Origin: Aplysia californica
Taxonomy: Eukaryota
Reading direction: 5' to 3'
Assembly (NCBI RefSeq): GCF_000002075.1
Contig: NW_004797510.1
Coordinates: forward strand, 593,384-657,383
Length of the DNA: 64,000 nt
Shown here in pieces: positions 5,851 to 12,924 of this stretch. Position numbers and translations under genes: made by a program. How positions within the stretch are numbered: position 1 is the first letter of the stretch; every line of letters starts with the position of its first letter. Under the pieces are notes generated by a model. The model did not search any database and was not told where the DNA came from. It saw only the letters and a list, made by a program, of their open reading frames with translations.

Positions 5851-6031
5851 ATGGTGAACGAGTCCGTGTACGTGGCTGTGGCCATCGCCTGTGTCGTCGC
5901 TCTGCTCCTCGTCGCTGTCCTCATCATCTACTGCATCAAGAAGCACCAGGACAAAGAGATGATGAGACAGGCGCAGGAAGAACGGGCAAGGAGGGAAAGG
6001 CACAGGAGACAGCTCATGAGGTCACATATTG
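5851..6031 (+). CDS. PY-motif gene exon A: signal-anchor TM (VYVAVAIACVVALLLVAVLIIYC) + basic/charged juxtamembrane helix
   Basis: GC-rich coding-like island, ~23-residue hydrophobic run, G|GTGAGT donor. Confidence 0.82.
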
Positions 6032-9000
6032 GTGAGTGGGCGGGGAAAGGTGTATCGACAGCCGTATGTTGTTGGTTTTTGTTATTTTGTTGTTGTTGTG
6101 GTTGTTGTTGTTGTTTGTTTTTTGTGGGTTTGTCTTTTTTTGTTAAGAGTTTTACGACACTTGCAACACAGTTACGTCAAATAAGGACCGAAGATTAGAG
6201 GTGTTATAAGAGAGTAAAAAAAAGGTGTTCCGAATCCGATCCGGACATTGGGGATTGCCTTGTTAGTGAGCCACCTTCATGAGACTTCGGCATATTGTGG
6301 TAGGGTGGCCAGTTCCTTTCCACGCCACCTTTACTTCCCCAACTGAAAGTCAGGTACCCATTACTGCTGGGTGGGCAGGAGGGGGCGAAAAAAATCCGTG
6401 TCCGAACCGGGACTCGAACCCGGACTTTCCGCTTCGGAGACGAGCGCACTAACCACTCCACCACTGCACCCACTATAAGAGAGTAACAAACATAAAAAGA
6501 GGAGGGAAGATAAGGACGACAGACGTTTGATGAGAAAGAAGGAGCAAACCACACTAGAGCACCCGCCAATCACCAACCAGGCCAGATGTTCATAATATGT
6601 ACTACGCCTAAAATGTTTACTTTTGACGATAGCAGTTTCTTAATTGTTTATGGTCTCCGTTGCATATAGTTAGGAAATATTTTATCGAAATTCTAACTCT
6701 TAATGTTGTTTTTCAGTAGAGGTTTTACGGCGCTCGCAACTGCATAAGGTCATATGAGCGCAGCTTAATGTTGAAATAAGCTAGAAAAGATATAGATACA
6801 TAATGCAGATATTGTTTTAAAAACTGAAGTAGTTTTTTAAATCTCTCTTAAAAACTAACGTTTTCTGGGCTTAGTACAACTGAACAGCTTACCGGAGACA
6901 TATTGCCACCTCAGAATTACAAAGTTCTATCTGACATTTTGGGCCGTTTTGAGTTGGTAAGACCATGAGATCAGAAACCAAATATTCTATCTGCTCTATC
7001 AAAATTGTAAGATCATTCGGAGTGTTGTCATCAAGATATCTAAAGAATTGCATTCAGAAAAGCTGGACATGTCGAGAAACTAAAAATGTGTCATGCCAAA
7101 TTTCTCAAAACTAGGCACTGAGCAGATAGAACTTTGTAATTCTAGAGTAGTGATAGATACCTGAATACCTGGAGGTATCATTCTGACTCAGAGGTTGACG
7201 TGCAATGAATGACCCATCATTGCTAGCGGTCGCTTGCTGCCGTCACGCAGTCTATCACACTTATGCCTGTCCATGCATTGGTGTTATTGGTCCATATTGT
7301 TTGATGTCCTCCTTCAGCCCCTTAGCCCCACGAGTGCCTTCATGGGCATATTATTATTATTAGCAGTTCAGGTACTATATGGAGTTTGTGAAACCAATTA
7401 TGACGGGTTTTTTATTCTTAATACGACGTTCAACCTCCCCCCCCCCCCCCCTCGCAAAAATATAAATAAGAGAATATATAAATAAATGAATGAATGAAAT
7501 ACATGAAAAAATGAATAAATACATTAATTAATTAATTAATTAATTAATTAATAAAGTAATGGGGGAAATGCTGTCTCAGATTAGTTATCAGTCAATCAAT
7601 AGACCTAGTTTTAACCAGAAAAATGACCCCCCACCTCAATAGAAAAATAACTCCTCCTCCTCCTCCTCCTCCTCCTCCTCCTCCTCCTCCTCCTCCTCCT
7701 CCTCCTCATCCCTCTCACCCACACTTCGTCCTCCTCTACCTTATGCTGCAAAATCCATGCTTAGCAAACTTTGGTTCTCTGCTTCTAAAACCTTCCCTGA
7801 AGAATAATACTTTCTAGACCTATCCACACACCCAGAACCGTTCTCTCGAAAGACCCCCCCCCCTTTTCCCCCTTTCCTAATGCCTCTTTTTCTTTATTTC
7901 TCTATTGTTGTAGCCATTTTTTGCTCCTTCCTATACTTGTTTTCCCGTTCCCCATTCGCCTTTCTAAATCATGAGTGCACACGGAATGTGCAGGAAACTT
8001 TCACACAAAGATATACGTCATACAGTCGCGCCTAGGCCGCACTAGGCTCTAAAGCATCAATCAATCCATGACCGATCCTGCCCAATTGAACTCTCTAACT
8101 CTTATTGAAATCGTCTGGCTTTTGCGCTTGTCCACCCCCCCCCCCCCCACCCCCGCCCAAACCCATATTTTCCCCTTTTTTCCAAGCTCAACCTTTTCAA
8201 CCATCCTCTTAAAAGTCTAGGAACCGCCCACCTTTTTTTTCGTTTGTGGTTGTTGCTTATTTCTTTACTTCTTTTCTCATTCCTCGTTCACCTTTCTAAA
8301 TCATGGTGGCAAATAGAATGTGCAGTCAACTTTTACGCGTAGAAAGAAGTCCTTTAATCGTCCCTTTGCTCTTAAAACACCATACAGTACTTGACCGAGC
8401 GTGTGTACCTGGCCTCTTTAACTCTTTAAGGACGTAGCAGACACTTAATCCCCGGAGCAGACCACAGACAATGCTAGGGCACGTTTTGAACGATCAGACA
8501 CAAACCAGAAACCAAAAACTAAGTTTTATATTCCATAGTGTGCTGTTGAAACAAAGCTCAAATATCTTTTTGAATCAAGAAGTTAAGCTTCTTTTAATTC
8601 CTAAAGTGGCCCCAAAACAGCGAGTCTCCAATCATTGTCCAAAAGGTAGAAGTAGAATATACGTCTTCAAAGTCCAGGAATGAACTCTTCGACGGTTCTG
8701 CTTTCAAGAAACCCGTGTTTGTTACCTTTTTATTTAAATTGACTTTCTTTTTGCATTCCCGTGGTCGCAGGTCTTTCTCCGTCACTTTTGATGTCAGGAT
8801 CGGTCTTTAAAAAATTATTTGCTGCACGATCCTCACATGAAAAAAAAAGGTGAAGGAGAACGGTCTTCGGCAACGGAAAAGCAAATAAGTCGAATTTAGA
8901 CATATGTGGCATGCGGGTTTCTTGAACTGAATCGTCGTCCTGTTGAAATCCTTTCACTTCTAAAACCTGCGCAATTTAAACTCGTTATCACAGCTTTATA

Positions 9001-9518
9001 CCAATGATTCTGCAATTATAATCATCACCGATTATGGTGCATTATTTTTTTCGTTGTGAATGCGGCTGCCTTCTACCGCCCGAACCAAATAATCACAATT
9101 CTACACGCTTCTAGGTTTACTATACCTATCTATTGAGCGTCGAGCAACGAAATCAGATCGATTGTGAAGACTTCAATAAATTGGAGTTCAACGTGTCCTC
9201 AATATTTGCAATACAGCGATAAAGCTCGTGCCCAATAGATCGATATTATGCTTTTCACGTTTATAGCTAGGGAAAATAATTTAATATCGACGACTTCAAA
9301 GGCACTTTGGTCTGAAAGTTCAACTGCTGACGTATGGTGCCTTTTCTAGGCGTTCTGGGTCGGTGAAGTCCGATTGTTCAATAAGGCCGTCTTTTCAAAC
9401 TGGGGCACTTAGAAGTTGGCAGGCTTTTGTGGCTTTCTCTCGAGTAGGGGACATGGAATACAATGTCGTTACTTACGTAAACATACTTAAACGCGATGGA
9501 AAGAAGAGAGAAAGAAAG

Positions 9519-9584
<66 letters not shown>

Positions 9585-11904: not shown

Positions 11905-11992
<88 letters not shown>

Positions 11993-12332
11993 TACAGGCA
12001 GGCAGACAAGGGAAAATGGGAAAATAAGGGGGGGGGGGGATGATGATGATGAAAAGACAATTTCTCATTCTGTCAATTTTGATTCTTTTTTCCATCATCT
12101 TCTTCTTTCTTTGTTTCTTTCTTCTTTCGCAAGAATTCTAGTTTTTAAAACAAATGCCATCCCCCCTCTCCTTACACTCACCAGAGCCCGTGCCCACAGT
12201 GTCTCGCAACGTAGCCCCAGCAGCCACAGTGTACAGCAACAGCCACAACTACATGACGTCATATACAACCGCCAACTCCAACATGCCCAGCCACCTCAAC
12301 AGCAGTGGTAATCACCAACAGCTTCGTAACAT

Positions 12333-12367
<35 letters not shown>

Positions 12368-12924
12368 ACTACAGTAACAACGACAACAACAACAGCGCTC
12401 TCAACTTCAGCTCCCAGCCCACCCACACCCAGTCGGCGCGAGAATTGTCTGGTGCCGTGCCTTCCACGATAGTTGTCGCCCCTTCCAACCCTAATCGTGC
12501 GTCACTTCCTGCAGAGAGAAGGAGACCCCAGTCGAGAACTCTCCGACTCGTCGACGCAGCAGATGCTCACAATAATAACCGTTACGCCAACACATCAAAC
12601 AGAAACGGGATTATTCTGTCTGTTAACTCATCTAATGTTCAAAGAATGAACGCTGCAAACCAACAATATACCGAGGAAAATTCCTCAGCCTTTCAGCGAC
12701 GCAATAACGTGGAGCCAAGGCAATCTCAGAACTACGCCACTTTGAATCATAGCCAGTCCAGGAATGCCTTTTCCGTGGACACGGGTTCCGCTTCCACTCA
12801 AACTGGACAGCCTAACCCTTACGCAGCTCAAGTAGCAAACGCCGAAACTAACTACAGCAATCTGAGAAATAATTATTCCCATACCCGCACTAGCCGTGCC
12901 ATTGAAGACTTATCCCTGATTTAA
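5851..12924 (+). CDS. Uncharacterised single-pass membrane protein with three PPxY motifs (3 coding exons, 362 aa), whole span
   Basis: Exons 5851-6031, 10501-10668 and 12185-12924 all join in phase 1 with canonical GTGAGT donors and pyrimidine-rich CAG acceptors; strong Kozak context (gtcatcATGG). The start could lie further upstream because the 5' flank is misassembled. Confidence 0.8.
6218..6473 (-). mobile_element. tRNA-derived SINE, family S1 (tRNA-Arg(CCG)-like head), full length, nested in a RepA copy
   Basis: A box TGGTGGAGTGG, B box GGTTCGAGTCC, central CCACCCAGCAGTAATGGGTACC; 13-bp TSD tataagagagtaa at 6205-6217 and 6474-6486. Confidence 0.9.
10501..10668 (+). CDS. PY-motif gene exon B (VRPPAYDPN...SPPPAYKEM...YPPPVY)
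   Basis: tactttacAG acceptor, GTGAGT donor, 168 nt, open in the required phase. Confidence 0.85.
10975..11200 (-). mobile_element. tRNA-derived SINE, family S4 (decayed)
   Basis: B-box-like GTTCGATTCC on the minus strand; homologous to ~45430-45585 (-) and ~58940-59145 (+). Confidence 0.55.
12185..12924 (+). CDS. PY-motif gene terminal exon C: Asn/Ser-rich disordered tail ending IEDLSLI*
   Basis: ctccttacactcaccAG acceptor inside ORF 12154..12924, correct phase. Confidence 0.82.

Follow-up and report, generated by a model that had tools for sequence, protein, structure and literature searches.

The locus studied here raised the question of what kind of protein is encoded by an unnamed, spliced gene of Aplysia californica, for which a transmembrane adaptor had been proposed from the DNA letters (hereafter, the original prediction). 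The gene lies on the plus strand of a stretch of 64,000 nucleotides (nt), called here the window (assembly GCF_000002075.1, contig NW_004797510.1, positions 593,384-657,383, forward strand), and all coordinates without a prefix are those of the window. Joining and translating the coding exons (5851-6031, 10501-10668, and 12185-12924) gave 1,089 nt and a protein of 362 amino acids (aa). The protein appears so far to belong to an unnamed family restricted to heterobranch gastropods and of a known functional kind, and on balance we lean towards a single-pass membrane adaptor linking Nedd4-family (C2-WW-HECT) ligases to a membrane client.

Splicing of the coding exons

Both coding introns are of the GT-AG type and of phase 1. 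A 951-nt contig of run X1 covers 5801-6030, 10500-10667, and 12184-12322, and thus spans both junctions. Junction 6031/10501 was also found in the loose ends of contigs from all four contig runs, belonging to two studies, while junction 10668/12185 was found in one X1 contig, X1 being the sole RNA-type run with a listed piece across it. The kind of runs X1, X2, X5, and X6 is absent from the record, and they were taken as RNA because their contigs are spliced. With contig evidence of RNA type for both junctions, the spliced 362-aa product of the original prediction is real.

The transmembrane exon (5803-6031) follows the acceptor at 5802/5803 with a 48-nt leader, the ATG at 5851, and the codons of residues 1-60. 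The second exon (10501-10668, 56 codons), whose junctions were set by joining and by the contigs, encodes residues 61-116. The last coding exon (12185-12924) encodes an Asn/Ser/Arg-rich tail of low complexity, with no Lys and no Cys, and ends with a TAA (12922-12924). X1 contigs place the 3' untranslated region (UTR) at 12925-13451 at least, and the first AATAAA occurs at 18241. Four of the five coding variants checked were synonymous (from a table with 248 further rows), and run X9 (organism B) contributed two exon-3 pieces with 0 differences and without comparative signal.

Conservation of the PPxY motifs

A phmmer search with exon 1 against 1.84 billion representatives returned seven matches at E ≤ 0.001, six of them homologues; the other, P0007, was dropped as a repeat protein in which only 20 residues matched. 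A profile search gave eight gastropod-type matches among 7,998 candidates scored. The homologues came from Lymnaea stagnalis, Biomphalaria pfeifferi, Biomphalaria glabrata, Bulinus truncatus, Elysia chlorotica, Elysia marginata, and Plakobranchus ocellatus, all of which we take to be heterobranch gastropods, and none was found outside this group by phmmer and the word-limited profile search, both weak for distant relatives. Conservation was counted over eight proteins, namely the window protein and the full-length homologues P0002, P0003, P0004, P0005, P0006, P0014, and P0015; exon fragments with read-through (P0001 and P0016) and near-identical cluster members were excluded. Identity to the window protein in five homologues was 58-67% for exon 1, 47-64% for exon 2, and 24-29% for the tail, the last to be compared with means of 21-27% after shuffling (three homologues shuffled).

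The three PPxY motifs of the window protein (PPAY at 63, PPAY at 86, and PPVY at 113) all lie within the 56-codon exon. The first (PY1, residues 63-66; 10506-10517) is a PPxY in 8/8 proteins. The second (PY2) stands in a block, [ST]-P-P-P-[AE]-Y-K-E-[VLM]-A-T-P (residues 84-95; 10569-10604), which is likewise present in 8/8, contains the final Lys of the window protein (Lys90), and is flanked on both sides by proline-directed kinase sites. The third (PY3, residues 113-116; 10656-10667) has its counterpart in 7/8. In 100,000 shuffles, three PPxY motifs were reached with P = 0.0002 for the cytoplasmic part and P = 0.004 for exon 2 alone. Set beside a tail whose identity is at the shuffled level, these counts bear out the selective conservation that had been expected of the three motifs.

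Further searches gave the family no name. No Pfam family was above cut-off for any exon or homologue, and the weak matches were to MLANA (E = 0.018, one of seven homologues), TMEM252 (PF15664; best 19 bits against a cut-off of 27, two of seven), DAG1 (E = 0.059, one of seven), and, also below cut-off, the profiles of SIT, GAPT, and SCIMP. The PDB sequence search with the profile gave 0 matches, and the best look-alikes in the ESM Atlas scored 0.84 and 0.83, under the lead threshold of 0.9, the models having a predicted local distance difference test (pLDDT) value of 0.44. Word-indexed searches with the transmembrane exon (longer proteins) and with the last exon returned nothing though true homologues exist, so these blanks are weak. 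When the Aplysia genome was searched with exons 1 and 2 for a paralogue, the gene's own locus and one match with a stop (E = 0.96) were returned. The automatic public names of homologues are hypothetical, PX-domain kinase-like, Ras GEF P, and Dscam C-terminal. No publication was found under the accession or locus terms of the gene in a search of main texts (underscores dropped, supplements outside the search), and supplements of mollusc transcriptome studies could list it; among the matches listed for the commissureless, gastropod, and Nedd4 literature, none was by title a molluscan PY adaptor. A lineage-specific protein with no named orthologue, as originally proposed, agrees with homologues in heterobranchs only and with no Pfam family reaching its cut-off.

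Membrane segment and topology

The protein has a single hydrophobic helix, a signal-anchor transmembrane segment at residues 6-29 (5866-5937), with a best 19-residue hydropathy of 3.44 and no value above 0.39 elsewhere. Conservation within it is lopsided: 9/12 positions of the luminal half, including Cys14, are invariant in the eight proteins, as against 4/12 of the cytosolic half. Cys14 and Cys28, the only two cysteines of the whole window protein, are invariant in 8/8, as are Ile26-Tyr27-Cys28, Lys30, Asp34, Lys35, and an Arg-rich run. The single helix and the juxtamembrane Cys (IIYCIKK) of the original prediction are therefore present, the latter without exception. The basic, Arg/Glu-rich juxtamembrane segment that follows (residues 30-56; 5938-6018), invariant at 10/27 positions, predicts an N-out, C-in topology. 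Ahead of the helix stand five residues, without Cys in 8/8, and the NES sequon at residues 3-5 had been read as a site of N-glycosylation. This sequon is kept in 3/8 proteins and is 3 residues away from the membrane, whereas a distance of 14 residues is described as needed (PMC4783361), and the site was abandoned.

A lysine desert behind the second PPxY motif

A trait unmentioned in the original prediction is a lysine desert, which is conserved across the family. The window protein has four Lys (30, 31, 35, and 90) and 32 Arg. The pooled sequence past the lysine of PY2 amounts to 1,902 residues in the eight proteins, with 158 Arg, 2 Lys, and 0 Cys; each Lys is a single residue near the C-terminal end of one of the two Elysia proteins. 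The longest Lys-free stretch measures 205-272 aa, or 66-75% of each protein, in 8/8; lysine deserts are defined as Lys-free over at least 150 aa or at least 50% of the length (PMC13696103), and the tail qualifies on both counts in every protein. From the base composition of exon 3, 11.4 Lys would be expected, but it encodes 0 (P = 9e-6), even though a single step would turn 87 of its 245 codons into Lys codons. Three separate lineages with unalignable tails together have 0 Lys and 67 Arg. As rough controls, four neighbouring frames contained 6-17 Lys each in 114-203 residues (42 Lys in 638 in total). Lysine deserts are reported to protect proteins of the ubiquitin system, with Cys also excluded in Hrd1, and putting Lys back into them led to more ubiquitination in five of the six ubiquitin-system proteins tested (PMC13696103). 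The tail is a clean example of a desert that has been kept between lineages although the tails themselves cannot be aligned, a question that a 2026 review counts among the unresolved ones (PMC13696103).

A candidate adaptor for Nedd4-family ligases

A single transmembrane helix together with cytoplasmic [LP]PxY motifs kept in orthologues is the pattern of PY-motif single-pass adaptors, and it was found here. In the Aplysia genome, WW and HECT exons occur together on one strand in contigs C283, C413, C460, and C510 (the search covered WW and HECT only, not C2). A predicted complex between one WW domain of C283 and residues 58-100 of the Plakobranchus homologue scored 0.06 and 0.05, which speaks neither for nor against binding.

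As an adaptor for these ligases, the protein would take up its N-out position by way of the signal anchor and carry a palmitate on Cys28. Its PY motifs would engage tandem WW domains and activate the ligase, as is described for the PY motifs of WBP1L (PMC6991692) and CYYR1 (PMC11399591) with ligases of the Nedd4 family. Phosphorylation of the conserved [ST]-P ahead of PY2 possibly tunes the affinity; phospho-Thr upstream of a PY motif was reported to raise the affinity of Nedd4 WW domains 3-8 fold (PMC5209733). Recognition of a membrane client would fall to the unusually conserved luminal half of the helix together with the Arg/Glu helix, and ubiquitination of that client would follow; precedents for client choice through the transmembrane segment are given by Comm-Robo (PMC5578492) and Ssh4-Rsp5 (PMC7759299). 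The complex would reach endosomes and lysosomes, aided by a terminal D-L-x-[LF]-I, and adaptor-ligase complexes with PMEPA1 (PMC5316989) and MART-1 (PMC3364180) are reported to go to lysosomes. The Lys-free tail would confine self-ubiquitination to the conserved Lys 30, 35, and 90. Of the Nedd4-family PY adaptor as first proposed, the core (lineage-specific and single-pass, without ectodomain or named orthologue) stood up to the checks on splicing, start Met, and PY conservation, and four accessory motifs failed on conservation.

Several points weigh against an adaptor of this kind. PPxY motifs also bind WW proteins that are not ligases, and 14 of the 24 WW matches in the genome lie off the four contigs with WW and HECT exons. 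Expression of the gene looks restricted, as 1,499 million letters of one raw polyA library (X21) gave no depth over 12215-13003. The control frames for lysine ran roughly from stop to stop and were not all verified as coding, and the eight proteins are related, so that their pooled Lys and Arg counts are non-independent. The terminal motif is missing in the Biomphalaria and Bulinus models (2/8), and one of six members of a Biomphalaria cluster carries a 51-aa N-terminal extension. The desert pattern is described as common and as no proof of selection (PMC13696103), and the lysines of Comm itself were dispensable in one study (PMC12101832).

Comparison with known adaptors suggests a likely functional likeness to Comm, PMEPA1, and WBP1L without detectable homology. 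Commissureless (Comm) and PRRG1-4 are likewise short, single-pass, without signal peptide, lineage-restricted, and provided with PY motifs (PMC12101832, PMC5578492), and Comm recruits Nedd4 to Robo1 in a PY-dependent ternary complex, Comm-Nedd4-Robo1, its own homologues being reported in insects only (PMC12101832). The window protein differs from Comm and PRRG in having no Gla domain, an outer end of five residues, and no sequence match to them here, and no LPxY, LPSY[DE]xA[LV], or GLPSYDEAL-type motif was found in it or in five homologues. PMEPA1/TMEPAI is likewise a signal-anchor protein (type Ib) with PY motifs binding Nedd4, and its lysines form one small cluster (PMC5316989). Here, by comparison, there are three PY motifs, not two, and the Lys are beside the membrane and PY2, not C-terminal; the word-limited profile search of 7,998 candidates gave no match to PMEPA1 or LDLRAD4. 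PMEPA1 and LDLRAD4 have a Smad-binding motif between their PY motifs.

The Shisa-like/STMC6 proteins (WBP1L, CYYR1, VOPP1, and TMEM92) share the single helix, a Cys at its end, three PY motifs, and Nedd4-family binding (PMC6991692, PMC11399591), but the luminal C*C*CC*CC domain described for them (PMC5578492, PMC6991692) and a signal peptide are absent here. No Shisa or WBP-1-type Pfam family appeared at E ≤ 0.1 in the seven homologues, and the families shown for the window exons at E ≤ 1 included none either. PRR7 and other transmembrane adaptor proteins (TRAPs) likewise have a short outer part, a single helix, and WW- and PDZ-type motifs (PMC5033326). TRAPs also have a juxtamembrane Cys for palmitoylation, for which the invariant Cys28 (8/8) is a candidate here. 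Compared with the TRAPs LAT, NTAL, and PRR7, SH2-type tyrosine motifs are non-conserved here, and no homology was detected. The resemblance to PRR7, PMEPA1, and Commissureless that had been pointed out thus holds for the layout of helix and PY motifs and fails for membership in each of these groups.

PY membrane adaptors choose which surface proteins are destroyed by Nedd4 ligases, and they are fast-evolving; heterobranchs, among them neurobiology models and snail hosts of schistosomes, thereby gain a candidate adaptor. The class of mechanism is already known, and the surprise is moderate. A more specific version, which we regard as improbable, is a gastropod Commissureless of independent origin. 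Its client would be a receptor of neurons or of development, picked via the invariant luminal face of the helix; selection would have cleared the ubiquitin acceptors Lys and Cys from the tail, sparing Lys30, Lys35, and the Lys that directly follows the Tyr of PY2; and ubiquitin on Lys90 together with phosphate on Ser84 would turn ligase binding on and off. If true, the family would lend itself as a natural test case for whether selection keeps lysine deserts in an otherwise unalignable tail.

Ligase binding might also occur without any client, which we consider unlikely. The protein would then be an activator or sink that drives self-ubiquitination and lysosomal loss of the ligase, or itself ubiquitin-sorted cargo like MART-1. 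Three PY motifs are likewise found in CYYR1, which is described to act so on WWP1, and in WBP1L, and a Lys-poor adaptor would outlast its ligase. Melan-A/MART-1 (PF14991) is also a small membrane protein, and as Nedd4/Itch-bound cargo it is sorted to multivesicular bodies (PMC3364180); the MLANA likeness of the family consists of an Atlas score of 0.82, where scores below 0.9 are leads only, and the Pfam match in one of seven homologues. Melan-A differs in its size (about 106 aa in the Atlas cluster), its restriction to chordates, and its lack of a long tail. An invariance of 9/12 positions in the luminal half of the helix is beyond the need of a plain anchor, and this argues against a protein without a client.

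C-terminal and tyrosine motifs

The window protein ends in EDLSLI (12904-12921), of which the core D-L-[SA]-[LF]-I is present in 6/8 proteins. The terminal [DE]xxxL[LI], a motif picked after the fact, had P = 0.0002 in the shuffles, where P was 0.023 for a class I PDZ terminus. Over the family, the terminus fits DxxL[LI] in 5/8, class I PDZ in 5/8, and [DE]xxxL[LI] in 2/8, and both the adaptor-protein (AP)-type dileucine and the strict class I PDZ ligand assigned to it earlier were rejected on conservation. Judged by its motif, the conserved terminus appears closest to a GGA-type DXXLL signal as defined in PMC3743005, with the final Leu replaced by Ile and without an acidic cluster ahead. The models P0004 and P0014 (Biomphalaria and Bulinus) both end at 295 aa and lack the D-L-x-[LF]-I terminus, and this absence in planorbids is either a real loss or a shared model error.

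If the terminus were nevertheless a PDZ ligand, the protein could be a plasma-membrane scaffold, with its PY motifs bound to non-ligase WW proteins and its C-terminus to a PDZ domain, an arrangement that seems rather improbable to us. Non-ligase WW proteins include YAP/Yorkie, MAGI, Kibra, and dystrophin. The S-x-I end in 5/8 proteins and the many WW genes of the genome are in its favour, as are PRR7, which bears WW and PDZ ligands (PMC5033326), and the weak DAG1 match in one of seven homologues. However, Lymnaea has Ala in place of the Ser at -2, while the six proteins that have this end never vary in Asp at -4 or Leu at -3, unlike class I PDZ ligands. The scaffold also leaves the Lys/Cys desert unexplained.

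A phosphotyrosine adaptor of the LAT/NTAL type, recruiting Grb2 through YxN and PI3K through YxxM, is very unlikely and, on conservation, largely refuted. It is suggested by the signal anchor, the juxtamembrane Cys, four YxN and one YxxM (YKEM) in the window protein, and the weak SIT, GAPT, and SCIMP matches below cut-off. However, four YxN motifs are at the level of chance (P = 0.16) and YxN is absent from 4/8 proteins, while YxxM (P = 0.29) is kept in 1/8, its Met within PY2 being Val or Leu in 7/7 homologues. The Grb2 and PI3K motifs of the original prediction were rejected accordingly.

The 5' end of the gene

An upstream exon had been missed. Its donor (3006/3007) is joined to the acceptor 5802/5803 in three of the four runs, and the contig of the fourth begins at 5883, that is, 3' of this acceptor. 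Loose ends in X1, X2, and X6 match 2975-3004, and these 30 nt are the direct RNA view of the exon. The contigs of these three runs extend 379, 596, and 435 nt, respectively, upstream of the transmembrane exon, and given the 596 nt of X2 there is probably a further 5' piece beyond the predicted leader exon. The start of that exon was predicted at 2507 because the acceptor at 2506 is the sole strong one in 2300-3005; the resulting exon (2507-3006) is single copy except for an AAC microsatellite.

Translation in the frame of the protein meets a TGA at 2950-2952, and the 34 codons that separate it from the ATG at 5851 contain no Met; the 30 nt with direct RNA evidence begin 23 nt downstream of this stop. 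Up to 2975, the three AGs that follow the TGA make poor acceptors (pyrimidine share 0.33-0.38), and since the only strong acceptor is at 2506, the stop is probably part of the mRNA. The ATG at 5851 has a strong Kozak context (A at -3, G at +4), and 7/7 full-length homologues share this start Met, five residues ahead of the helix. Because of the in-frame stop and the shared Met, the upstream exon (2507-3006) is most likely 5' UTR, in agreement with the absence of a longer N-terminal ectodomain. A known receptor whose ectodomain exons were missed, with the protein as its back half, is highly improbable: an upstream exon does exist, the frame is open for 34 codons ahead of the ATG, the direct RNA view of that exon is confined to 30 nt, and one Biomphalaria model has 51 aa more, but the in-frame stop at 2950 has no good acceptor after it, 7/7 homologues start at the same Met, and no ectodomain-like frame was recognised by eye among filtered frames in 200 kb upstream.

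The predicted leader exon holds 10 upstream ATGs, a hint of translational control; one of them opens an upstream open reading frame (ORF) of 15 codons in another frame (2957-3004). Of the short ORFs in this exon, one stops two bases short of the donor. A perfect cAMP response element (CRE) palindrome at 5841-5848 was dropped, as three such sites in 64 kb are near chance.

Repeats and neighbouring genes

A 410-bp exact duplicate (5221-5630 and 7731-8140), whose first copy comes right after a run of 100 N, is probably an assembly overlap; it is intronic and leaves the protein unaffected. Copies of a short interspersed repeat were found at 5631-5786, 6203-6471, 15359-15614, and 23658-23923, and one fragment of it stops 16 nt ahead of the acceptor of the transmembrane exon.

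The convergent neighbour on the minus strand (33027-57915) has PX (E = 3.6e-12), weak kinase-like, and WH2 (E = 1.8e-9) exons, which is the layout of PXK. The Plakobranchus homologue is automatically named 'PX domain-containing protein kinase-like', a label that may reflect the same PXK neighbourhood or a transferred name. About 60-70 kb upstream, on the plus strand, lies a BTB and BACK gene with a long Ser/Arg-rich tail (L009:8397-8582 and L008:670-5874), and repeats accompany it in the 200 kb upstream. Exons on the minus strand at L007:1480-1662 and 7308-7622 are, as we take them by eye, like those of a universal stress protein, without confirmation by Pfam for the one frame scanned. Broken retrotransposon-like gag/pol frames extend from L016:9043 to L015:1893. 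At C413:595813-597150, the HECT match lies in long frames, with 526 aa open, where small exons would be usual; two WW matches are nearby, and this locus may be an intron-poor copy of a ligase gene.

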